Source: Escherichia phage MLP3. Taken from it: 64,000 bases of DNA. The stretch lies in the sequence record OK148440; one strand, written 5' to 3'. The notes below the pieces were generated by a model. That model was given only the letters and a program-made list of their open reading frames with translations. It ran no database searches and was not told where the DNA came from. Positions 1,846 to 63,626 of this stretch are shown in pieces (within the stretch, counting starts at the first letter, position 1; every line of letters starts with the position of its first letter). Both the position numbers and the translations under genes were made by a program.

Positions 1846-3513
1846 ATGCAACAAACTTCTTATGCGTATCTTCGCAGTCAAGACCCAAGAAATCAGATTT
1901 ATGGTGTTAAACAAGGGGCCGCTTCGGCCTCTCCATACATGGCAAGACCTGCTTATCCAGCTGCTGATGTTTCTATGTATAACCGGAGACCTCCTGCTTC
2001 TCCTGTAGGTTTGTCTTCTCTTGTTGCCAATGCTCAAGAAGACCAAGAAGCTATGTTAAATCCGGGATTTAAACAGCGCCTTATGGAAGCAGAGAATCAA
2101 GGAACTCCTACAAGCCTTCAGGGTATTGATATTGGTGAACCAGCTCCTGCTATGAATAACCCAGATCTATCCTCTGATGAGGGTCTACAAGCTGCTGGGT
2201 TGATGCCTAGTGACCCACTTCCTGTTACTCCTCCTCGTAAACCTCTGGAAGAAACAGATAAAGAGTTCTCTCCAGTTCAGGTGGAACAGGCTCAGAATGT
2301 TATTAACACTTTAGCTAATAGTAATCCAGCTCCTGAAGGTATGGCTGGTGCAACTCGTGCTAAAGACCAAGAACGTATTAATAATGATATTATGGAAGTA
2401 GCTAAAGCTAAAGACCCAGCACAAGCTTGGAATGAGCTTCAGAAGCAACCGTTCTATCAGAAGTCTAGTTTCTACACTGGCTTAATGGGTGTTGGTCTTT
2501 CTATCATGTCAGGTAAATCCCCTATTGAAGCTTTCCAGATTGGTTCTGGCTTAGCTGCTCAGGATGAAACTAAACAACAACTAGAAGCCAATCGCGATGC
2601 TCTGTTAGAACAAGGCTACTCTCAAGATTCAGTTGCTGCTGCAATTGCTTCGGGAGATCCTTCTCTTCTCAAGATGCGTCAGATGAGTCCTCAGGAGAAA
2701 ATGGCTCTTGCTGCTCAGGATGAAGAACGTGCCAATCGTGAGTGGGATAGACGTCAACAGATTCAAGAGAATTCGATGCGGGAACGTGCTGCTGAAACTC
2801 GTCGTGCTGCTGAAGAACGTGCTAATGCTCAGTTCGAGAAACAGAAAGAACTTATTGGATATCGTGATCAAGTTAAAGCAGAGCGTGCAGAGAAAGCTGC
2901 TCAGAGCTTTACTTTCAACCCTAAAGAAGTTCGTCTGGCTCAGAATACAGCAGAAGGTACTGTTGCTAAACAGTGGGCAGAAAAAGCAGGTCTATTTAAT
3001 CAGTCTCACAAAGACTTGGATTTAGCTGACAAAGCTATTAAAGATAAGGATTATCAAACTGCTCGTTCTGCTTACATGCAGGCTATCATGAACTCCGCAA
3101 GGGCAGAAATTGGTGCTAACCGCTCTCTCCAAGCTGATGACTTGGCTCACTTTGCAGAAGACCCGTCAATCTTTGTTAAGGTTGGTAATACTTGGTCCCT
3201 TAAAGCAGGCTATCGTCCTTCCGATGCTGCTCTGTCATATGCTCGTAAGCAGGCAACTGTTGGTGCTACTTCCGCTGAGAAAGGTGTGAAGGATGCTAAG
3301 AAAGCAACAATTGAGGCATATATCGGTTCTGGTATGGATAAGAAACGAGCGACAGCTCTTGTCAACCGTGCTATTCCTTCTGCTGGTTTCTATGACCCAT
3401 TCGGTACGTTTGAGAGTGAAGCTGAAGCAGCTGTTGGTGGAGATGCTACAAATCCTCGATTAACAGGTGCTCTTTCTTCTTCAGCGGCAGATACGAGTTG
3501 GATGTTCCAGTAA
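1846..3513 (+). CDS. virion internal protein, coiled-coil, Ala/Glu-rich
   Basis: ATG with upstream TAGGAG; 555 aa; position between virion genes. Confidence 0.5.
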   Translation: MQQTSYAYLRSQDPRNQIYGVKQGAASASPYMARPAYPAADVSMYNRRPPASPVGLSSLVANAQEDQEAMLNPGFKQRLMEAENQGTPTSLQGIDIGEPAPAMNNPDLSSDEGLQAAGLMPSDPLPVTPPRKPLEETDKEFSPVQVEQAQNVINTLANSNPAPEGMAGATRAKDQERINNDIMEVAKAKDPAQAWNELQKQPFYQKSSFYTGLMGVGLSIMSGKSPIEAFQIGSGLAAQDETKQQLEANRDALLEQGYSQDSVAAAIASGDPSLLKMRQMSPQEKMALAAQDEERANREWDRRQQIQENSMRERAAETRRAAEERANAQFEKQKELIGYRDQVKAERAEKAAQSFTFNPKEVRLAQNTAEGTVAKQWAEKAGLFNQSHKDLDLADKAIKDKDYQTARSAYMQAIMNSARAEIGANRSLQADDLAHFAEDPSIFVKVGNTWSLKAGYRPSDAALSYARKQATVGATSAEKGVKDAKKATIEAYIGSGMDKKRATALVNRAIPSAGFYDPFGTFESEAEAAVGGDATNPRLTGALSSSAADTSWMFQ

Positions 3514-3538
3514 TCTAAGACCTAAGTCCTATCTCTTA

Positions 3539-3549
3539 TAATGTATATA
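3539..3549 (+). promoter_or_regulatory. TAATGTATATA motif about 35 nt upstream of the 1481-aa gene (candidate phage-specific promoter element)
   Basis: exact motif; recurs upstream of other genes on both strands. Confidence 0.35.
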
Positions 3550-9001: not shown

Positions 9002-9823
9002 TTATTCCCAAGTTTTATCTAACCATGACCAATCAAAGAGGTCACCTTCAGCTTGTCCAACGAAGAGCAATCGAGCGTTTTCTAACATCTTATCTTCTGC
9101 TTCTTCCTCGAACCTCTTATAGTATTCCATTCGTATAATATGATAAAGAGTCCACTTATCGAATACCTTCTCAATAAGTTTGATTGCAGCCTTGCTACCA
9201 ATGCCTTTACGGCGCATAACCAAGTTGCCACCCCACATCATTTCAACCTTCTCACCACAACCGGGAATATTATCTGTATTATCCCCAATCAACATTTGGT
9301 AGAAGAAATTCTGCCATGCTACTTCTTCTGATACATAATGAGGAGGTACTTCTTTCTGTCTTTCTCCACAAGCCCAACGATAATGCCATCCGGGAGTGAT
9401 TAACAAATCTTTATCACGAGTACAGATAATCGTATTCTTATCTCGTCTCTGTCTTTCAGCTAGGGCATCATCTGCCTCTCTCCCAAAGACTTCTACATAC
9501 TCGTAATTTTCTTTAATATAATCACTAACGTTCTGCCAGTGGTGGGGTCTTTCTCCCGGTGGGCGATTAGCTTTGTAGCCTTGCTGTTTAGCAATGTTAA
9601 ATCGAAAGTTACCACCTTCACTGAAGTAAAAGATTGTTTTCTCACAACCTGACCTTGCAATGATTACATCAATTTTGTGTTGAAGTCGTTCAATCAAGAA
9701 TCCATAATCAACTGGAACACGACCTGTGTCTAGAAAAGGATGCTCTTGTGTAAGAGCACCGACTTCATATCGCAGAACATCTGCATCCACAATTGCTACT
9801 TCAGGATAGATTACATCAGACAT
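9002..9823 (-). CDS. 5'-3' exonuclease / flap endonuclease (FEN family)
   Basis: GREADDALAE motif typical of 5' nuclease family; table start is TTG at 9850, ATG with GGAGAG RBS at 9823. Confidence 0.7.
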   Translation of the reverse strand: MSDVIYPEVAIVDADVLRYEVGALTQEHPFLDTGRVPVDYGFLIERLQHKIDVIIARSGCEKTIFYFSEGGNFRFNIAKQQGYKANRPPGERPHHWQNVSDYIKENYEYVEVFGREADDALAERQRRDKNTIICTRDKDLLITPGWHYRWACGERQKEVPPHYVSEEVAWQNFFYQMLIGDNTDNIPGCGEKVEMMWGGNLVMRRKGIGSKAAIKLIEKVFDKWTLYHIIRMEYYKRFEEEAEDKMLENARLLFVGQAEGDLFDWSWLDKTWE

Positions 9824-10412
9824 AGAGTTCTCTCCGTGTCCGTACAACAATCCAGTTTAAATAATCTACTGCATCTTCTACAGTAGAATTATTCGCTAGG
9901 TAGTATGTATTTCTCTGACTACCTTCAATGTAGGAACGAGAATCTCCTTTAAAATCACAACCTTCACGAATCACCTGAATTACCTGAACATGGAAATGTT
10001 TCTCTAGTTCTTCAACTTCGGCTTTGAACCCACCATCAGAGAAGACGATAACATCATTCTGTGATGGGATACGTTGTTGAATACTGCTAACAGCAAGTTT
10101 ACCCATGCAGGTCTCACCAAACATAGGCTTCAGGTAATTCTCGCTAGTTGCAATCATCAAGTCTCGAACTGACTTACCGTCCCATTCAGGACGGCTATGT
10201 TCTTTCCACTCACGATCGTTGTACAGCTCCATGAACTCATAAAGAGGTAGACCTAATGCAGCAGCAGCCACTCGATACATAGGCTCCTTAAAAGCCTTTA
10301 CATGAGGCCTAAACTCGGTGTTACCAAGTGTTTTCTCTAACCAAGAATTAGCGATTGTATCTTTACCACAACCCGGTGGTCCATTCAGAATTACTACTAA
10401 TGGTTTACTCAT
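9816..10412 (-). CDS. P-loop nucleotide kinase (dNMP kinase-like)
   Basis: Walker A GPPGCGKDT near N-terminus; about 200 aa. Confidence 0.5.
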   Translation of the reverse strand: MSKPLVVILNGPPGCGKDTIANSWLEKTLGNTEFRPHVKAFKEPMYRVAAAALGLPLYEFMELYNDREWKEHSRPEWDGKSVRDLMIATSENYLKPMFGETCMGKLAVSSIQQRIPSQNDVIVFSDGGFKAEVEELEKHFHVQVIQVIREGCDFKGDSRSYIEGSQRNTYYLANNSTVEDAVDYLNWIVVRTRRELYV

Positions 10413-11062
10413 TATTGAATCATCCCTTGAAGATCTTCTTTATCAAAGTGCTTCTCTACTACCGCTTCATACAGATCACGATTCTCTGAATAACGACGAT
10501 AGAAGGTTCCGTGTGAAATTCCCAACTCTTGCTGGATGTGATCATGTGGGATGCCGAGAAAGAGCATTGAGAACATGCTTGCCATCTTACGGTTTTCCAT
10601 AATGTCACTCAGGTCTTGGAAGAAGAAAAAGATTCTAGATTCCAAGAACGGGTCTCCAGTAGAATCATGCTTATCCATCGCAATCTCTAAAGGACTTTCC
10701 CATGAATTCATCTCAGGAGGTCTAAACATATCAGCCTCTGGAATAGAGTAGATACGTCGGTCTCCAACTGTCTGGCGATTAGAACGAATCGACCAGATGA
10801 TATTCTTGACACGATAAGTCATGTGCTCAATATCTTTTTCATCAGTGAGCAGAAGTTCTTCTTGCTTTGCAAACACAAAACGCCAAGCGTTCAGTAATAC
10901 TTCCTGAGCAACATCCTCTGCCTCGTGATAGTCTTTAATGTCATACATAAAATACTTATGCACAACTTTCCAGTTCTCTCGATAAAATTCATCGAAGGTT
11001 GGATAATATTTAATAGGAATGCCATGAATACGATAGCGTGTGGGTGTTGTCTTTTTCTTCAT
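10412..11062 (-). CDS. sigma-70 family (ECF-like) sigma factor
   Basis: region-2-like [15 protein letters not shown] and region-4-like [13 protein letters not shown] segments. Confidence 0.5.
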
Positions 11063-11086
11063 AAGTCGTCCTTAACTTATTTTATA

Positions 11087-11311
11087 TTAAACTACACAGA
11101 ACAAATACATTGCTGTGTCAGGACAAGGGATGTGATCGCTAGGTTGCCTAATTCTATCCCATTCACCATCTTCTGCTATATAATAAGCCCAATAAGACTC
11201 ACCATCGTTGATGAAGAATTTGAATGTTCGTCCCCAAATCTGATTATTATGTTCCCATACTGCATGAAATTGAGTAACACCTTCTGGTATTGTAAGTTCC
11301 GCTCTGATCAT
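11087..11311 (-). CDS. hypothetical protein
   Basis: ATG; ATGA overlap with upstream gene. Confidence 0.4.
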   Translation of the reverse strand: MIRAELTIPEGVTQFHAVWEHNNQIWGRTFKFFINDGESYWAYYIAEDGEWDRIRQPSDHIPCPDTAMYLFCVV

Positions 11312-11568
11312 TGTATTCCTCTCTCCTTGAGAGCTTTCAGTAAACCATTATGGTTAGCAGCACAGGTTGTGTAGTTGTCCTGATACCACTCTAATGTTGC
11401 TGCAAATGCCACTCCCTGTGCACTCTGAAGCAAAGGGAGATCAACATCACACTCAGCTTTTAGGTTTGTTGGTAAGGGCATTAGCTGCCTGCTGTTGTCG
11501 CTCGTTGAACAAGCTGACATACTCATCACTAGCACACACATTGTAAAAAACTGGCTTAGTCTTTTCAT
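11308..11568 (-). CDS. outer-membrane spanin (o-spanin) lipoprotein
   Basis: signal peptide with lipobox-like SMSAC; Pro-rich; overlaps i-spanin out of frame. Confidence 0.5.
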   Translation of the reverse strand: MKRLSQFFTMCVLVMSMSACSTSDNSRQLMPLPTNLKAECDVDLPLLQSAQGVAFAATLEWYQDNYTTCAANHNGLLKALKERGIQ

Positions 11569-11813: not shown

Positions 11814-11836
11814 AAAAAAGCCACCCGAAGGTGGCT
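11814..11836 (-). terminator. rho-independent terminator downstream of SSB-like gene
   Basis: on minus strand AGCCACC-UUCG-GGUGGCU followed by U6. Confidence 0.55.
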
Positions 11837-12599: not shown

Positions 12600-12656
12600 A
12601 TTAATATTTCCTTATATAAATTTAAGATTGTTGCTCTCTTTGAGCGGTTTGTATAC

Positions 12657-12667
12657 TATATACATTA
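12657..12667 (-). promoter_or_regulatory. TAATGTATATA motif about 58 nt upstream of SSB-like gene
   Basis: exact motif on minus strand. Confidence 0.35.
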
Positions 12668-12729
12668 CACTTATACAGATAAGGTTCTATTATACTATAA
12701 CCTTTTTGGTAGTAGATAATGACAAGTAG

Positions 12730-12740
12730 TAATGTATATA
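12730..12740 (+). promoter_or_regulatory. TAATGTATATA motif, plus orientation, no downstream plus-strand ORF
   Basis: exact motif, divergent to the copy at 12657-12667. Confidence 0.3.
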
Positions 12741-13145
12741 TGGTATAGCTAGTAAAGCTATTGCAGGCTTGTATATTGGGCAATTCATAGAATCCCTTGC
12801 AAGTACCGAAGGGCAGGAGCCACCTGCGAGATAAAAATAGAGAATTAAGGAAATCCTTGATTTAGGTTGTAGGGACTCCTAGGGACTTTGATTCTCTATT
12901 TAAAAGAATATTAATTACTTACTACCTAAATAATTAACTAACTTACTTAAACCAAACTCAAGAATAATAGATAAAAAGATTATTCCTAAGAAAGCTAAAA
13001 AGTAAAGGATATAAGTTACCATTCAAGTAAACCTTTAAAGTTAGTTTGTTCTACTATCCTCTGATAATGAAGATTAGAATCAGCTTGTTTCTTTAACATC
13101 TCATTATATTTATCTCTGATAGAGTCTTTATAAACTACAGGTTCT

Positions 13146-19198: not shown

Positions 19199-19242
19199 AA
19201 CTCCTTAATATATCAGTGTACACTAAGGAGTATACATTATGT

Positions 19243-23628: not shown

Positions 23629-23640
23629 GTATATACATTT
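23629..23640 (-). promoter_or_regulatory. AAATGTATATAC motif (TAATGTATATA-like) upstream of 23265-23612 gene
   Basis: near-exact motif about 17 nt before RBS. Confidence 0.3.
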
Positions 23641-23664
23641 GAGAGTTATCATATCTACTACCAA

Positions 23665-23880
23665 CTAGTAATAAACCTTGCTGGATATGAATCCAGCACT
23701 GTTATGGATATTTTCAATCCAACGATGAATCTCCACCTTTTCAGCGATTCCTAAAGCTTTTGTAGCTTTTATAGTTTTCTTAGCAAGACGAGCCTCTTGT
23801 CTTGTGTTGAATAATTGAATACAATCACCACCAAGAGTTTTGTTAGCCCATTTAGTACGAACTGCCCATAATTTATCCAT
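23665..23880 (-). CDS. small protein, TRQEAR-motif paralog family member
   Basis: paralog alignment. Confidence 0.45.
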   Translation of the reverse strand: MDKLWAVRTKWANKTLGGDCIQLFNTRQEARLAKKTIKATKALGIAEKVEIHRWIENIHNSAGFISSKVYY

Positions 23881-29932: not shown

Positions 29933-30118
29933 TTATTCTACTTCGAAGTGTTTGATCACACCAGTCAGTACATCAGATTGGAACGTACCTACTAGCTCTG
30001 TACCTCGGAAAAAGTTAACACTTGTTCCAAGTGATTCAAAGCGATCTGCTTGAATGTCCAGAGATTGAATATTTCCTTCTGCTGACATTGTACGAAACAT
30101 GATTGTGTATTTATTCAC
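29933..30118 (-). CDS. hypothetical small protein
   Basis: ORF only. Confidence 0.35.
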   Translation of the reverse strand: MNKYTIMFRTMSAEGNIQSLDIQADRFESLGTSVNFFRGTELVGTFQSDVLTGVIKHFEVE

Positions 30119-30357
30119 AGACTTGTTACTCCCTTATCTGCTTGTGCAATTGCGATGATACGCTCAGCACATTCCATTGAATATTTATCACCTCGTTTGA
30201 GGAAGGTGATGATTGCAGAGAACTGATTACCAATCATTCTCTTATTTGTGATACCGAACTCTTCACAGAGTTGGTTGATAGCTTTACGAGAGCCTACAAT
30301 CAGAGGCTCTTTTTCTTCGGTCATTCCACGGCTGATCAAATCTTCGATAGACAACAT
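30115..30357 (-). CDS. hypothetical small protein
   Basis: ATG. Confidence 0.4.
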   Translation of the reverse strand: MLSIEDLISRGMTEEKEPLIVGSRKAINQLCEEFGITNKRMIGNQFSAIITFLKRGDKYSMECAERIIAIAQADKGVTSL

Positions 30358-35912: not shown

Positions 35913-36719
35913 TTATACAATCTGGAGTTTAGAGGAGAATTTATCCGCTTCTTTAACATCGTTACTGTTGATGATGTTGTGAAGCTTTTCAATTGGAAGG
36001 CGAGAGTGAAGTGACATCAATACTTCCATATCACAGCCTTGAACAACCTTATCAACTTGCTCATAAACAAACTTGCGGGTTGACTTCTCGCCAATCCAGA
36101 AGTTAGAAAGAGAACGATATTCAATACCGTAATCTTTGTAGCGAATGGCAGAAGCCTTTCCGTATAACTCTTTACGACGAGTATCTTTATCCATGATCAC
36201 AGCTGGCAAGGACAGGAAGTAATCACACAACACACCCAACATCATTTGAGTCTGACGACTAATTTCCAGCGTACCAGTGACGCCAAGGTGAACATGACCG
36301 CCAGCAGTACGCAGACCTTTGTCTGTCGCTACTGGAGATGGGTTTTTCTGACCAGTGAAGGCGTTGAAATCAGGAGTACAACCAAATACAAAGGCTGACG
36401 GATGGAAAGATTCCAGCTCTTCTGAAGTGAACACATGAGAGCTAATCCCAAGTGCTGCCTCCATGCCACGTTCATTGAGAACTTTGTTAGTCAGATCAAT
36501 ACCACGCTGAATGTTATCATTAAACGCTTCAAACCCTTTCTGTGGGTTAATATCGAACTCGGCCAGAACGTTGTCTTCTTGAAGACGAACATCAGGGGCC
36601 AGATCAATTTTGTTGTCTTTAGAGCAGCCCAGCTTACCAGCCACAGAGGTGATAATACCAGAAGCAGTACGAACAAACATTTCAGGGTCAGAACCAATAA
36701 GGAAAGCACGCTTAGTCAT
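35913..36719 (-). CDS. amidoligase-like protein (second copy, divergent)
   Basis: FLIGSDPEMF and AGGHVHLGV motifs; ATG at 36719 with GGAG RBS (table start GTG at 36764). Confidence 0.45.
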   Translation of the reverse strand: MTKRAFLIGSDPEMFVRTASGIITSVAGKLGCSKDNKIDLAPDVRLQEDNVLAEFDINPQKGFEAFNDNIQRGIDLTNKVLNERGMEAALGISSHVFTSEELESFHPSAFVFGCTPDFNAFTGQKNPSPVATDKGLRTAGGHVHLGVTGTLEISRQTQMMLGVLCDYFLSLPAVIMDKDTRRKELYGKASAIRYKDYGIEYRSLSNFWIGEKSTRKFVYEQVDKVVQGCDMEVLMSLHSRLPIEKLHNIINSNDVKEADKFSSKLQIV

Positions 36720-42787: not shown

Positions 42788-42863
42788 TGGTGCACCCTAC
42801 AGGACTCGAACCTGTAACCAACGACTTAGAAGGTCGCTGCTCTGTCCGTTGAGCTAAGGGTGC
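42788..42863 (-). tRNA. tRNA-Arg, anticodon UCU
   Basis: hand-folded cloverleaf: acceptor GCACCCU/AGGGUGC, D-stem GCUC/GAGC, anticodon loop CUUCUAA, T-arm ACAGG-UUCGAGU-CCUGU, encoded CCA. Confidence 0.85.
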
Positions 42864-48953: not shown

Positions 48954-49872
48954 GATATTCACCTTTCAATTGTAAGGGCACTATGCCCCGCTCTCTATGA
49001 GCTTTTTAAGTCACTATTGACTTATCAATAATCACTCAATATCAAGTAATTATTGATAAGCGAGGCGGTCTTATCAGGAGTTAACCTTGCCGCCTCCTTA
49101 TCCGTGATGTTTCATCTGGTATCTTTAATTAGTCGCTATAAATAAAGCCGACCTGATAGCGATGATCAATCATCACAATAAGGCAGTGCGTCCGACTCTA
49201 TTTAATTACTTTATCGTAACCGTCGGCAATATCGTCTACTTTGCTTTCGCTCCCGCCTATCCTTTTGTACTAACTCTCAATCGCTAACCATCGCCCACTA
49301 CGGGAGGTTATTGCGAAAGAGTCATTAGCCGTCTAATACATTGACGTTTTATATCTTTCAGCAGGTTTACTACATAAACTGATTATGTACGCCATCAATA
49401 GTGGCCTCAAATCATTCACATCGTAAACGTTCACACTAAACCTTATTGTTAAATAGCAATTTGCCACTTTTTAACCATTCACCGCCGCCCCCAATTGGGC
49501 GTTAATTCGTCGGATTTGCCTACCCTGATAAACTTCTTTCACTGTAGCACCTTGTTAGCGATGGCCGCCGCTACCCTTTAACCGTGGGCGATTAGTTTAG
49601 GCCGTTGCGTGTACTCAATGAATCCGTTTTATCAGTGGTGACGTTTCCAGTTAAGGGATTGTAAAAACTGTTTACCCTGATAATTTAGGGAGTCTTACGC
49701 CGTTTTATCTGGTATGTTTTCCGATGGTTATTATCATCCAACATATTCAACCGATATAGGAGAATGTTTAAATTGTTAAAGAGCGGTAAATCTATCAGTG
49801 TGCTTTCTCACACTATGCAACTGTTAGCCGTTGTTACGCTTTTCTTAAGCGGTGAATTGCTTAAGTGTGCTC

Positions 49873-49901
49873 ATTATGAATCATGCTGTTTTAGCTGTCA
49901 A
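49873..49901 (-). promoter_or_regulatory. sigma70-like promoter (TTGACA-17 nt-CATAAT)
   Basis: minus-strand -35 and -10 hexamers with 17-nt spacer. Confidence 0.45.
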
Positions 49902-50038
49902 CCGCTTTTTAATCTTTTTCGTCGTTCCCTTTATTGGGAGGATATATCAATCAGCTATATTTGATTGAAGATTAAGCGGTAAGGCTTAACTCGCGATTCA
50001 TATTTTTAAAGAGCGGTGTTTCTTACTGCTTGGTGAAC

Positions 50039-50066
50039 ATTCTATCAGAGTGTTTCACCTTGTCAA
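50039..50066 (-). promoter_or_regulatory. sigma70-like promoter (TTGACA-16 nt-TAGAAT, TG-extended) within repeat unit
   Basis: minus-strand hexamers; CCGCTCTTTAA about 22 nt downstream. Confidence 0.4.
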
Positions 50067-50197
50067 CTCTTTTTATCATCTTCTTTTATTCTATTCCCTT
50101 ATCTCGCTTGAATCTATGCGAAAGGGCAAGATGATAAATTGTTAAAGAGCGGGGCACTAAGTGCCGGATGTTTCAAGTCATCGCTGACCGTGTGAAC

Positions 50198-50225
50198 ATC
50201 TTATCATAGTGATTCGATGTGTCAA
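50198..50225 (-). promoter_or_regulatory. sigma70-like promoter (TTGACA-16 nt-TAAGAT, TG-extended) within repeat unit
   Basis: minus-strand hexamers; CCGCTCTTTAA about 46 nt downstream. Confidence 0.4.
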
Positions 50226-50286
50226 CAACTATTTTTCGATTAATGCATCTTGATAAACTAGCGACCATTAAGGCCGCTAACCTACC

Positions 50287-51530: not shown

Positions 51531-51779
51531 TTAATTATCCTCGACGGTTAGTAGTTCTTCCAGTGACAAACCGGATTTAACCAGCAAATCACGATATTCG
51601 TTAGCATCCATCGGATCGAGGCCGGATAATCGGGCAACGGTCATGCGTGCATGTGCTGAAGACAAGGAAGCTAAAGCACGGATAGGAATCAATACAAGCC
51701 CATACTTGCCACTAATAACTAAATCACCGTGCTGGATGCACATATGAGCATTTACTACGATTGCAAATGATTCGTTCAC
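51531..51779 (-). CDS. hypothetical small protein
   Basis: ORF only. Confidence 0.4.
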   Translation of the reverse strand: MNESFAIVVNAHMCIQHGDLVISGKYGLVLIPIRALASLSSAHARMTVARLSGLDPMDANEYRDLLVKSGLSLEELLTVEDN

Positions 51780-52639
51780 TTGATAGCCTCACAATTAGCA
51801 AAGTTAATAAAAGTTGTATAGACTGCTATACCGTCATTGTAGGCAGTGGTAGCGAGTACAGTTTCGCTAACATCGCCATAACTAACGAGATTAGTTACAA
51901 ACTGTAATTTCTCTTTCTCAATCTTCTGATATAGAGAATAAGTTACCATGTCATGATCACTATCAGCACGCTTTAAATTAATAACCGATTGAACGCCAGA
52001 CTTATCACCTAAGGGGGTAAGAGTGACACGCACACTACTAACACTGACGTCATTGAAACGAACACGCCAAAAGGCATCATTTCCATCACTTCCAACGTCA
52101 CGGCAAGCCATATCAGGAGCGTTTTTAAACGTGCTAACAAAGGATTGCAGACCAGTAGAAAGAGAGTCTTTTGCCTGAACATTGGTAGAGATAGCACTAA
52201 CACCGATAGCTGCAACCAGTGCATAAGAAGCCAGATTAACAGACTTCATAATCTTACTTGCAATAGAAGGCTTGCTATCTTTCTTCTTCTTGTTCTGAAT
52301 AGCTTCAACCATAGCAGACAAGCGGGATAATACTGCGTTAGCATCGCGGCAAGATTCAGGCCAATCCTTTTGAGTCCAACTATCTAAATTAGCCTGAATG
52401 TAACAGTTGATAGCATCTTGCATATCGGTAAAACCATTCTCTTTCATCGACTCTTTATCTTCACACTGTAAGGCGTTCGCGGTGGAATCAATGATGAGGC
52501 AAGCCAGAATGACAGAGTTTTTGAAGCTGGTACGAGCTTGCTGGTTATCCATCCATTGAGAAGGCACACCAACGGAAAGACCTAACGAAGAAAGTACATC
52601 ATTTGCTTGATTCAAGTATTTAATTGCTAACTTTGACAT
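51776..52639 (-). CDS. hypothetical protein with internal signal-peptide-like segment
   Basis: ATG; MKSVNLASYALVAAIGVSAISTNVQA at residues 131-156 could mark a second start. Confidence 0.45.
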   Translation of the reverse strand: MSKLAIKYLNQANDVLSSLGLSVGVPSQWMDNQQARTSFKNSVILACLIIDSTANALQCEDKESMKENGFTDMQDAINCYIQANLDSWTQKDWPESCRDANAVLSRLSAMVEAIQNKKKKDSKPSIASKIMKSVNLASYALVAAIGVSAISTNVQAKDSLSTGLQSFVSTFKNAPDMACRDVGSDGNDAFWRVRFNDVSVSSVRVTLTPLGDKSGVQSVINLKRADSDHDMVTYSLYQKIEKEKLQFVTNLVSYGDVSETVLATTAYNDGIAVYTTFINFANCEAIK

Positions 52640-52683
52640 TTCCTTATCCTTTCGGTTGATGTGAATTAAAAACTACGATTGCA

Positions 52684-52711
52684 ACTATATATTAAAGGAA
52701 AAACCTGTCAA
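52684..52711 (-). promoter_or_regulatory. sigma70-like promoter (TTGACA-16 nt-TATAGT) upstream of 51776-52639 gene
   Basis: minus-strand hexamers about 45 nt before ATG. Confidence 0.4.
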
Positions 52712-52830
52712 CCACTTATTTTCAAACTATTTCATAACTCACTGAATATAAAAGGAATTTAATTTACTAAACTTTCTTGTTCAGAGATACAGCTTACCAA
52801 ATAGATGTTATTTTATAACACTTACAGAAC

Positions 52831-53919
52831 GGGTAGCAGACCAACGGGATAGATAGATGGGTAAGACGTGCCGCATAGGTTAGCCAATGGGTAAGAAGCC
52901 TAACGAGGAAGGGGAAACGGGTAGGATATAATGTAAGTTAGTTACAGTTAACAGGTCAGACCATGCGGTAATAAATTACCAGTCAATTCGCTACTATCGT
53001 AGCTCATATCAAATTCCTACTCATCAAAGATAAAAGAAAAAGAAAAAAGAAACGCTGAAAAAGAAAAGAATAAAAGAAAGAATAAAAATAATAACTAAAG
53101 TAAACAACTACCAGTCTAAACATACATACATCAATAATCCACTCATGAATAATCACATAAGTTATTACATTCAAACTATGGGGGATGGTCATCAATGGTA
53201 TAGTTTACATAGGTTATCATTAATGTTCTTACTATTAATACCGGTTAGTTATAGTCTTCTATTAGTATGCCTGTACAGTGCTAGCCTTTCATCCCTTCTC
53301 AACATGAGTAAGAGAAATACGGGTAGGAAATCACTGGTTAGATATACATGGGTAAATAATCAATGTGTAATATCAATGGGTAGGTTATTTATGGGTAGGT
53401 ATGCCACTGAACGCAGGTAGGGCAAGGCTTAGAGCTTAAAGGCTGATTGATTTCCTAAAGGCAATTGCATTGGTAATAACCCTTTTTTAAATGAGGACTC
53501 CCCCCTTTTAGGAAACGCGCTCGGAGCGGCTAGGTCCATCCGGTCAAATTGAAATTTTAAACTCTTATATATAAGAATAAGGAACTATTTTATGTGGAAG
53601 ATTAAGTTACTAATTAAGCAATTCAAATGTCAACACGAATACTACCCGATACGGATATCGAGAGGAGATGAACGGTTACACGCTTATTACAAGAGTACAT
53701 GGAGATGTGCAGACTGTGGTAAGGTTAGGAATAGTAAATGGGTGGATAGACCATAGAGAGTATGGGGTGGCCTTAACATGACATGGCCTTAATGGGTAAG
53801 CACTACTTCGTAGTGACGATGCCTTAATGTGGGGTAGCCTTTATGGAGTCCCCTTTACATCAGCGTACACGGGTTAGTACACGGGTGGGCCTTTAGATGA
53901 GTACGCCTTTATGGGTTGA
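52831..53919 (+). repeat. iteron-like array of at least 15 GGGTAGG / ATGGGTARG repeats in divergent intergenic region
   Basis: repeats all in plus orientation; proximal copies extend to GCCTTWATGGGT. Confidence 0.5.
53592..53756 (+). CDS. small zinc-ribbon-like protein (54 aa), below the ORF-track cutoff
   Basis: my translation MWKIKLLIKQFKCQHEYY...CADCGKV; AAGGAA RBS. Confidence 0.35.
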   Translation: MWKIKLLIKQFKCQHEYYPIRISRGDERLHAYYKSTWRCADCGKVRNSKWVDRP

Positions 53920-54880: not shown

Positions 54881-54908
54881 TATAACGATAATGTAGAAGG
54901 AGTATAAG

Positions 54909-62280: not shown

Positions 62281-62304
62281 CCCTGCCTTCGGGCGGGGTT
62301 TTTT
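62281..62304 (+). terminator. rho-independent terminator after capsid module
   Basis: CCCTGCC-TTCG-GGCGGGG followed by T6. Confidence 0.65.
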
Positions 62305-62332
62305 CGTTTTAAGACCTATACAAGCTAGTGTG

Positions 62333-62343
62333 TAATGTATATT
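62333..62343 (+). promoter_or_regulatory. TAATGTATATT motif upstream of HNH gene
   Basis: motif about 32 nt before ATG, directly after terminator. Confidence 0.35.
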
Positions 62344-62374: not shown

Positions 62375-62887
62375 ATGGCAATGCCAGATTTCAGAGGAGC
62401 TTTTACATATAACCCAAATACAGGGCATCTTTTCTGGTCTATGAGTAACATATTCAATAAACAGAAAGGTCAACGTGCTGGATGTATTAATAGTAAGGGA
62501 TATCGTGTGTTAACCTTCAAGAAGAAATCTTACCTAGAGCATAGAGTCATAGCTGAACTCTTTCTTCCTAAAGTAGAAGGGAAGGAGTATGTCAACCATA
62601 AGAATGGAATAAAAGATGACAACAGGATTGAGAAGCTAGAGTGGTGTACTCAACAAGAAAACTGTGTACATGCTTATGAAACAAAACTCTCAACACCAAG
62701 GAATCTTGAGGATAATCCTAATTCCAAACTTACTAAAGAACAAGTTCTTTTCTGTTTAGAGAACTATAAACCGAGGGACAGACAGTTCGGAGCTAGAGCT
62801 TTAGCTAGGAAGTTTGGAGTCTCTTCAAGCACAATAAGCCTAATAATCAATGGCACAAACTGGAAGGAGGTATCCTATGTTGCCTGA
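62375..62887 (+). CDS. HNH homing endonuclease
   Basis: VNHKNGIKDDNRIEKLEWCTQQEN HNH core; own terminator and promoter motif. Confidence 0.7.
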   Translation: MAMPDFRGAFTYNPNTGHLFWSMSNIFNKQKGQRAGCINSKGYRVLTFKKKSYLEHRVIAELFLPKVEGKEYVNHKNGIKDDNRIEKLEWCTQQENCVHAYETKLSTPRNLEDNPNSKLTKEQVLFCLENYKPRDRQFGARALARKFGVSSSTISLIINGTNWKEVSYVA

Positions 62888-63626
62888 CGTTCAATACCCC
62901 ATCAATACCTATGGGTGGCTAAAGAAGGCCGTGTCCCTCTGGGCAGATAGGGACGATGACGAATTTGTTAATCAAATTCCAAACTTTATTAACTTTGCAG
63001 AGAAAGAGATTTATCGTAACTTACGTATTCCTCCTCTGGAAAAAGAAGTGTATTTAGATATTAAAGATGGAGTAGCTTATATTCCTCCTGATTACTTAGA
63101 AGCTCAATGGATGATGAGAGCCAAAGATGGCACAATCTTCCAAGTAACCTCTCCTGAAGAGATTAGCTATCGTAGACAGCATGGAACAATTAACCCATCT
63201 CACTGGAATAACCAACCTGTCAACTTTGCTCGTTTCGGTAGTCGTTTCATTTTCTACCCTAGCATCGAAGCAGATACTCCGTACTACCCTGATGATGGAA
63301 GCCCTTTGATTCCAGCAGAAAACTCAGTGATTCTTAGCTATTATGCAGACCCACCGGAATTCCATGAAGATACAGATACTAGTACTATTCTTACTATAGC
63401 ACCAGAACTTCTTCTGTACTTCACCCTACGTCATGCTTGTCTCTTTGTTCAAGATGATAATGGTGTTCAGAAATGGTCAGCATTAGGAAAAGCTATCCTT
63501 GATGAAATAGTAGAGCAGAATAAGAAACAAGAGTACTCAGGTTCACCTATCGCAATTCCGAATAACATGACTCGACTTCAGAGCAGCTTGCCTGATATTT
63601 ATGGTATTCGTACTTCTCGTGTATAA
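62877..63626 (+). CDS. virion structural protein (function unassigned)
   Basis: ATG at 62877 with AAGGAGG RBS, overlapping HNH stop. Confidence 0.5.
   Translation: MLPDVQYPINTYGWLKKAVSLWADRDDDEFVNQIPNFINFAEKEIYRNLRIPPLEKEVYLDIKDGVAYIPPDYLEAQWMMRAKDGTIFQVTSPEEISYRRQHGTINPSHWNNQPVNFARFGSRFIFYPSIEADTPYYPDDGSPLIPAENSVILSYYADPPEFHEDTDTSTILTIAPELLLYFTLRHACLFVQDDNGVQKWSALGKAILDEIVEQNKKQEYSGSPIAIPNNMTRLQSSLPDIYGIRTSRV

Follow-up and report, generated by a model that had tools for sequence, protein, structure and literature searches.

The gp36 protein of phage phiEco32 is an experimentally proven, very divergent factor of the sigma-70 family: it binds the core RNA polymerase (RNAP) of E. coli, directs promoter-specific transcription in vitro and has been captured in an open complex by cryo-EM (PMC12276001; PMC8948821, summarising Pavlova 2012). 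Residues D44, E47, E49, D50 and E54 of gp36 touch the beta' clamp helices; N95, S91, S94, E79 and H80 read the bases at -14 to -11; W90, Y83 and R84 stabilise the fork junction, where Y83 and W90 stack; and Y186 and R187 read positions -34 and -37 (-34A, -37G) (PMC12276001). In the C-terminal half, M138, I142, F166, L167 and F204 bind the beta flap-tip helix, and F146, M164, L167 and I169 form a groove for helix 1 of a second phage protein, gp79 (PMC12276001). Gp79 displaces sigma region 4, thereby inhibiting the sigma-70 and sigma-S holoenzymes, and co-activates the gp36 holoenzyme (PMC12276001). PMC8948821 lists six mapped gp36-dependent promoters, which serve middle and late transcription and lie upstream of genes 6, 13, 26, 40, 58 and 68, and gives their consensus as tAATGTAtA, with transcription starting 6–8 nt downstream. 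The promoter of gene 68 (P68) is the one used in the cryo-EM structure (PMC12276001). Four sigma-70 early promoters are reported for phiEco32 (PMC8948821). Nothing further on gene 36 was found in PMC4331800 or PMC12803456.

Two other phage systems invite comparison. Salmonella phage 7-11 is a related prolate-headed (C3-morphotype) podovirus whose own sigma factor, SaPh711_gp47, drives late transcription together with the host core RNAP; its promoters occupy similar genome positions (PMC8948821). Unlike gp36, to which it is only about 15% identical, SaPh711_gp47 is described as using a bipartite promoter, GTAAtg-N16-aCTA, and phage 7-11 is without a gp79 partner, sigma-70 shut-off or a middle class (PMC8948821). 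The authors of the gp36 structure drew an analogy with AsiA-MotA of phage T4, in which a small protein disables region 4 of sigma-70 and a second one gives early-to-middle promoter specificity (PMC12276001). T4, however, remodels sigma-70 and keeps it, whereas here a phage sigma replaces it, and there is no sequence or fold relationship between AsiA-MotA and the phage sigma system.

We analysed a 64,000-nt stretch of Escherichia phage MLP3 (record OK148440; hereafter the window, at its full length), in which a phage-encoded, ECF-like sigma factor of 216 aa had been predicted from the sequence. The gene and the two domains of its product are as follows.

nt 10412–11062, minus strand: sigma factor gene, orthologue of phiEco32 gene 36 (ATG-to-stop ORF, 216 aa plus stop)
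nt 10763–11062, minus strand: N-terminal sigma2-like domain (about residues 1–100; residues mapped to phiEco32 gp36, AlphaFold2 helices)
nt 10415–10693, minus strand: C-terminal sigma4-like domain (about residues 124–216; residues mapped to phiEco32 gp36)

The window comes from a coliphage of the phiEco32 type that belongs to the SU7 lineage (Suseptimavirus). The 6 kb surrounding the sigma gene are 94–97% identical to Escherichia phages HC-25922, 101114UKE3, IME267 and SU7, the last being the type of the genus Suseptimavirus in the subfamily Gordonclarkvirinae. Phage phiEco32 is placed in a different genus, Kuravirus; the window is collinear with its genome, with circular permutation, and the DNA identity is mostly 74–85%, rising to 95% in the last (capsid-region) segment.

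The 216-aa ORF of the original prediction was recovered at the same position, and its strand (minus), which had not been given, is added here. An SD-like AAGGA lies about 8 nt 5' of the ATG, and the stop codon shares one base with the ATG of the next gene (TAATG). The ORF is not a chance one, as full-length homologues occur in the PDB, PHROG, phage genomes and metagenome clusters. The sole full-length match in the PDB is 9m7y chain F, which is phiEco32 gp36 deposited under the name 'RNA polymerase ECF sigma factor' (phmmer, E=1e-117, residues 1–215). The two proteins are 80% identical over their full length, the only insertion being two residues (N119, S120) in the linker between the domains of the window protein. 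PHROG 1740, 'RNA polymerase sigma factor', was matched at E=1e-43. Full-length homologues were found in 98 phage records, and proteins with 100% identity in at least four GenBank phages, some of them under a sigma factor annotation; homologues are labelled as sigma factors in Bas87, Bas88, EK010, phiEco32 and SU10, and as 'hypothetical protein' in most records. The family is small, with 20 clusters reaching down to 45% identity in a collection of 5.8 billion proteins that includes metagenomes, and it was found solely in phiEco32-like phage genomes and contigs.

The order sigma, dNMP kinase-like, 5'-3' exonuclease and then a convergent giant gp26-like gene is kept in relatives at 48–64% identity, and the position beside the dNMP kinase and exonuclease genes is the same as in phiEco32. 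The immediate neighbours include the dNMP kinase, spanins and a 74-aa protein (PHROG 30479). Unlike in phiEco32, gene 35 is absent downstream, and upstream the position of gene 37 (macro domain) is taken by the 74-aa ORF. Taken with the residue-level comparison below, the gene product is almost certainly the promoter-specificity (sigma) subunit that the phage supplies to the host RNAP, orthologous to phiEco32 gp36, and the prediction of a phage sigma factor is upheld in that the function of gp36 is proven in phiEco32. RNAP binding, promoter specificity and timing are properties that we infer for the window protein by transfer from this 80%-identical orthologue.

The residues through which gp36 acts are nearly all retained. 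All 13 contact residues of the sigma2-like domain are the same as in phiEco32 (D44, E47, E49, D50, E54, E79, H80, Y83, R84, W90, S91, S94 and N95). In the sigma4-like domain the equivalents are Y188 and R189 for the -35 contacts, L140, I144, F168, L169 and F206 for the flap-tip helix, and F148, M166, L169 and I171 for gp79. Overall, 23 of 24 contact assignments are identical (23 distinct residues, as L167 is counted twice), the sole change being M138 to L140. The acidic residues that bind the clamp helices are invariant throughout the family. Two peptides had been picked out beforehand as region-2-like and as a region-4-like helix-turn-helix (HTH). From the translation, the first corresponds to residues 47–61 (nt 10880–10924) and turns out to be the helix that binds the clamp helices, with E47, E49, D50 and E54; the second corresponds to residues 181–193 (nt 10484–10522) and holds the -35-reading Y188 and R189 (Y186 and R187 in phiEco32).

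The partner protein is encoded in the window as well.

nt 30115–30357, minus strand: gp79 homologue, 80 aa (in phiEco32 the sigma-70 inhibitor and gp36 co-activator; tblastn, 76% identity, E=2e-40)

When the sequences were compared by eye, the gp36-contacting residues L6, L9, V10 and M14 of gp79 corresponded to I, L, I and M, so that their hydrophobic character is conserved, and the salt-bridge residues R26 and R68 were kept. The original prediction had overlooked this obligatory partner, which performs both sigma-70 shut-off and gp36 co-activation.

No general sigma profile reached its threshold. Pfam Sigma70_r2 (PF04542) matched residues 26–61 only, at E=0.0011 and 19.1 bits against a gathering threshold of 24, and the region-4 profiles (PF04545, PF08281) had no match in the 216-aa protein even at E up to 10. 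Thus, of the Sigma70_r2 and r4 profile searches that had been proposed as a check, the former gave a sub-threshold match and the latter none. All NCBIfam ECF models scored far under their cut-offs (TIGR02937, 20.6 bits against 42.9). Across the family, sub-threshold r2 matches were seen in 15 of 19 members (best E=1.9e-5) and a Sigma70_r4_2 match in one of the 19 (E=0.0036), and when the family alignment was run as a profile against the PDB, the ECF matches gained were only marginal (SigW, E=0.029; SigK, E=0.035). Lack of a significant hit to sigma-70 family profiles had been named at the outset as a ground for refutation; applied to the letter, this would have misled and come close to rejecting a true sigma factor. 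The profile results are decisive in neither direction, and the match to the solved gp36 structure takes precedence over them. Pfam thresholds evidently miss the gp36-type sigma family.

The best Pfam matches of the C-terminal part were to DUF1492 (E=0.028) and TetR_N (E=0.064), and there were matches to the TetR-family structures 2qwt (E=0.3) and 2eh3 (E=0.018). Together with the missing Pfam region-4 match, these could be read as signs of an ordinary HTH regulator, a repressor or activator of the TetR or DUF1492 kind that binds DNA but does not join core RNAP as its sigma subunit. The matches are non-significant, however, and cover only about 40 residues, the 80%-identical full-length orthologue occupies the sigma position in an RNAP open complex, and the acidic residues facing the clamp helices do not vary across the family, so that the probability of such a regulator is negligible. 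The TetR, DUF1492 and HTH_23 matches were dismissed as short HTH similarities.

A structure prediction had also been proposed at the outset. The AlphaFold2 model, built on the family alignment without the phiEco32 row, had a mean pLDDT of 76.6 and consisted of two helical domains and, between them, a linker predicted with low confidence, with helices at residues 23–42, 45–64 and 75–100. It shows a two-domain sigma2 plus sigma4 architecture without region 1.1 or region 3. Foldseek matched the model to 9m7y_F at E=5.5e-20, and the other top matches were nearly all ECF sigma factors (SigE, SigL and SigH of M. tuberculosis, AlgU, SigW, SigK and BldN), with probabilities up to 0.98 and E-values no better than 0.026. 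The low TM-scores reflect a different orientation of the two domains relative to each other.

How far the protein may be called an ECF sigma factor can be judged from these data. Like the bacterial ECF factors SigE, SigL, SigH, AlgU and B. subtilis SigW, it is about 200 aa long and built of sigma2 and sigma4, and these factors are its best non-self fold matches (Foldseek probability 0.92–0.98) and, over the region 2.1/2.2 helix, also the best of its weak matches in sequence. A true bacterial ECF (group 4) sigma acquired from a host, one that is restrained by an anti-sigma factor, regulates its own gene and recognises a bipartite -35/-10 promoter, would account for these best non-self matches and for the lack of region 1.1 and region 3; the name chosen by the PDB depositors for 9m7y_F and a cAATGTAtt element 41 nt 5' of the gene's own ATG can be cited in its favour too. 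Yet the identity to ECF factors is 12–20%, the Pfam and NCBIfam thresholds are not reached by the phage protein, and the gp36 structure, which does show a sigma4-like fold, departs from the ECF pattern, with helix 1 turned by about 70 degrees, recognition helix 4 shortened and the flap-tip helix docked differently (PMC12276001). An examination of the promoters for an ECF-type bipartite pattern, with a -35 (AAC) and a -10 element, was negative: one extended -10-like element, tAATGTAtA, dominates, and upstream of it only A at -34 is universal. No anti-sigma factor is present among the neighbours of the sigma gene, and the known partner, encoded 19 kb away, is a co-activator that takes the place of an anti-sigma factor. 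With the family also confined to phiEco32-like phage genomes and contigs, an origin as a host ECF sigma is very unlikely. By every family feature examined here (homology, contact residues, gp79 partner and cognate promoters) the protein belongs to the gp36 family. Because no sigma-70 profile matches it above threshold and both an ECF-type promoter and an anti-sigma factor are lacking, 'ECF-like' holds as a description of its resemblance in action and fold and not as a classification.

The window contains both host-type early promoters and promoters of the gp36 type. The host-type sites are the following.

nt 49873–50225, minus strand: three near-consensus sigma-70 promoters (TTGACA-16/17-TAAGAT, TAGAAT, CATAAT)
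nt 52684–52711, minus strand: fourth sigma-70-type early promoter (TTGACA-16-TATAGT), 5' of a 287-aa ORF at nt 51776–52639

A cluster of host-type promoters had been predicted at 49.8–50.2 kb, and three minus-strand sites are indeed present at 49.87–50.23 kb (nt 50225–50198, 50066–50039 and 49901–49873). Each has a perfect TTGACA and 10–11 of 12 consensus matches, two have an extended TG, and the cluster lies in an ORF-poor stretch 5' of the gene-124 homologue. The total of four sigma-70 sites is consistent with the four reported for phiEco32.

Counterparts of all six mapped gp36-dependent promoters were also located, by comparison with Table S3 of PMC8948821.

nt 3539–3547, plus strand: P26 equivalent, late, TAATGTATA; 36 nt 5' of a 1481-aa gene (phiEco32 26014)
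nt 12659–12667, minus strand: P40 equivalent, middle, TAATGTATA (phiEco32 36632)
nt 19231–19239, minus strand: P58 equivalent, middle, TAATGTATA (phiEco32 42937, identical downstream leader)
nt 23632–23640, minus strand: P68 equivalent, middle, AAATGTATA, with GGTA at -37 to -34 (phiEco32 46862)
nt 54889–54897, plus strand: P6 equivalent, late, TAATGTAGA (phiEco32 1677, with the same g deviation in Table S3)
nt 62333–62341, plus strand: P13 equivalent, late, TAATGTATA (phiEco32 9101)

These six elements are syntenic with, and identical in sequence to, the published six, down to the deviations 'g' in P6 and 'a' in P68, and each is intergenic with an SD and an ATG 20–50 nt downstream. The exact TAATGTATA occurs five times in the window against 0.57 expected, always between genes, and none of 100 shuffled sequences reached that number, which bears out the non-sigma70 upstream motif of the original prediction. 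A is found at -34 in all seven gp36-type sites and G at -37 in four of the seven, in agreement with the structural contacts of Y186 and R187. In the metagenomic relatives L008 and L009, with sigma proteins of 64% and 70% identity, a tAATGTAtA-type element is present at the late (gp26-type) operon and at the gene-40 homologue; the L008 sigma has N at position 80. In a third relative (L007, 55% identity), no AATGTA element was found 5' of the gene-40 homologue, and gAATGTATA and TAATGTAGA occur 5' of other genes, so promoter placement is not fully conserved at 55% identity.

The promoters also bear on whether the gp36 orthologue could have drifted in promoter specificity or role within the SU7 lineage, for example towards another consensus or independence of gp79. 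One-fifth of the residues (20%) do differ, the linker has gained two residues and the upstream gene context is altered. Against this, the base-contacting residues are all identical, as are those of the gp79-binding groove, the six promoter elements are the same in sequence and position, and gp79 itself is present, which together make drift of this kind extremely unlikely. A sigma factor working in the manner of gp36 is the preferred reading. The temporal switch that had been proposed, away from sigma-70 early promoters and towards a phage-specific motif, agrees with the programme published for phiEco32, and the promoters found here fit it.

By analogy with phiEco32, the host sigma-70 holoenzyme would at first transcribe the leftward early genes from the strong sigma-70 promoters at 49.9–50.2 and 52.7 kb, and in a middle phase the 216-aa sigma factor and the 80-aa gp79 homologue would appear. 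Gp79 would settle on the RNAP clamp and insert its N-terminus into the RNA exit channel, displacing region 4 of sigma-70 and so turning off host and early transcription. The phage sigma would dock on core RNAP with its sigma2-like domain held to the beta' clamp helices by D44, E47, E49, D50 and E54, and with its C-terminal sigma4-like domain bound to the beta flap-tip helix and to helix 1 of gp79, which would stabilise it on the core. The tAATGTAtA element, at about -15 to -7, would act as a single strong element, read by E79, H80, S91, S94 and N95, while Y83 and W90 would stack at the fork; the contacts of Y188 and R189 with -34A and -37G in the -35 region would be weaker. The expected outcome is activation of the middle genes (P40, P58, P68) and of the rightward late structural genes (P6, P13, P26).

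The region upstream of the sigma gene differs from that of phiEco32. In phiEco32 a sigma-70 promoter has been predicted within gene 37, and TGGACA-17-TATAAT lies 51 nt 5' of the gene 36 ATG. With gene 37 replaced by the 74-aa ORF, that predicted in-gene promoter is missing here: no sigma-70 promoter was found 5' of the sigma gene on the minus strand between nt 11063 and 11540, and the sole candidate is a weak one (9 of 12 matches) at nt 11568–11540. P40 lies upstream of the sigma gene, and a strong terminator-like hairpin is located downstream of P40 at nt 11836–11819. The sigma gene might be served by read-through of this hairpin or by a start near nt 11100. For the cAATGTAtt element near the sigma ATG, autoregulation is a possibility only, since the element falls within the 74-aa ORF and AATGTA is frequent, with 39 copies in the window.

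The finding of the sigma gene is in itself already known and adds no new biology, given that gp36, 80% identical, has been characterised biochemically and by cryo-EM. Its value is that of annotation transfer: in the genome paper on SU7, an alternative sigma factor was expected but could not be found (PMC8399022), and the identical protein is a 'hypothetical protein' in most SU7-lineage GenBank records. Annotation of gp36 and gp79 together with the six promoters gives a full, testable early/middle/late transcription map for the phage. Such a map would be useful for engineering therapeutic Kuravirus-like and Suseptimavirus phages, with payloads placed behind late promoters.

The sole potentially new lead is an extra, divergent promoter with a conserved non-coding element beside it.

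nt 12706–12738, plus strand: putative seventh gp36-type promoter, TTGGTAGTAGAT box and exact TAATGTATA (nt 12730–12738), divergent from P40

The promoter lies in the spacer that separates the gene-40 homologue from the gene next to it (nt 12600–13015). Its TTGGTAGTAGAT box, which P68 shares, places G at -37 and A at -34. The divergent pair is found in phiEco32 too, at 36632 (minus strand) and 36704 (plus strand), as well as in L008 and L009, the elements being 63–72 nt apart. The site is absent from the six promoters in Table S3 of PMC8948821; earlier phiEco32 literature may already describe it. It is directed against all surrounding genes, into an ORF-free stretch of about 180 nt.

This sigma regulon might, as a tentative and rather doubtful proposal, include a so far undescribed seventh promoter that either drives a non-coding RNA dependent on the phage sigma or activates, by transcription, a replication origin similar to T4 oriF or the T7 primary origin. 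The RNA or origin is offered as a lead and not as a result.

The non-coding element of about 180 nt was present in all 98 genomes of the family and was at least 90% identical in 94 of them. It is better conserved than the flanking coding DNA; the flanking segments are mostly 74–78% identical to phiEco32, and the 84% segment that spans the spacer includes the element itself. In L009, whose sigma protein has about 70% identity, some 100 nt of the element keep roughly 90% identity, and both TAGGGACT direct repeats bear the same change in that relative. No Rfam family matched the element, either at the gathering threshold or at E up to 5, and the sequences of the relatives are too alike for covariation analysis. 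Predicted RNA folding of the plus strand of the element was only modestly stronger than that of shuffled sequences (z=-2.07), and the minus strand gave z=-0.97. A local GC minimum of 0.24 occurs just after the element, at nt 12900–13100.

In most GenBank records of the SU7 lineage, the identical or 99.5% identical sigma protein is labelled 'hypothetical protein' (e.g., SU7_29 of MZ342906.1), and the authors of the SU7 genome paper state that they were unable to identify the alternative sigma factor (PMC8399022). The missing label is a gap in annotation, not in biology. The following features surround the sigma gene.

9816–10412 (−): dNMP-kinase-like gene, 198 aa, PHROG 139
11063–11311 (−): region preceding the sigma gene, with a 74-aa ORF (PHROG 30479)
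11819–11836 (−): strong hairpin resembling an intrinsic terminator, AGCCACCTTCGGGTGGCT and then TTTTTT

On the downstream side, the start of the kinase-like gene sits in the sigma stop codon, and this TAATG overlap suggests that the two genes are translationally coupled. In phiEco32, gene 35 ('GTP-binding domain') separates the sigma and kinase genes; it is missing from the window, and phiEco32 gp34 is longer than the kinase-like protein by about 100 aa. The upstream side differs as well, with the 74-aa ORF taking the place of the macro-domain gene 37 of phiEco32. The sigma-70 promoter predicted in gene 37 has no counterpart in the window region upstream of the sigma gene. A gp36-like sequence, cAATGTAtt, is found 41 nt before the sigma ATG, in SU7 as well, but falls within coding sequence. 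The terminator-like hairpin immediately follows the gene-40 homologue and separates the middle promoter P40 from the spanin and sigma genes. In a distant relative (L004), a similar terminator immediately precedes the sigma gene.

A seventh promoter of the gp36 (phage sigma) type was found divergent from P40, and the regions carrying upstream boxes were compared between promoter classes.

12706–12738 (+): seventh gp36-type promoter, with a TTGGTAGTAGAT box (12706–12717) and an exact TAATGTATA (12730–12738)
12700–12925 (+), flanks to 13015: seventh promoter and non-coding element
3500–3547; 62295–62341; 12659–12705 (−); 23632–23680 (−): upstream-box regions compared

The boxes differ between the classes: TAAGACCTA, at approximately −38 to −30, is common to the late promoters P26 and P13, the TTGGTAGTAGAT box is common to the middle promoter P68 and the seventh promoter, and the box of P40 is TAGAACCT. 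These differences could account for middle versus late timing, or a differential dependence on gp79, the co-activator of gp36.

The seventh promoter is directed into an approximately 180-nt non-coding element. This element was found in all 98 family genomes (at least 90% identity in 94 of them), a higher degree of conservation than that of most flanking genes (74–78%). It contains a hairpin (GCAGG-AGCCA-CCTGC), a TAGGGACT tandem repeat and a 14-bp stem (12835–12901); beyond it, the GC content reaches a local minimum of 0.24. The element may represent a non-coding RNA or a transcription-activated origin.

At P13, an ORF has been inserted between the promoter and the gene-13 homologue (62850–63626).

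62375–62887 (+): 170-aa ORF, HNH/NUMOD-like sequence

Relative to phiEco32, the insertion adds about 470 bp; it duplicates the original start region (MAMPD) and probably encodes a homing endonuclease.

Two further kinds of feature were mapped.

42788–42863 (−): tRNA-Arg, anticodon TCT (Rfam)
49032–50286; 52640–53140: long ORF-poor stretches containing four near-consensus sigma-70 early promoters

The window and phiEco32 differ by a circular permutation (window 54470 = phiEco32 1270), so genome ends of the phiEco32 type would be near window 53.2 kb. The tRNA, the sole Rfam match at the gathering threshold within the window, occupies the same position as that of phiEco32.
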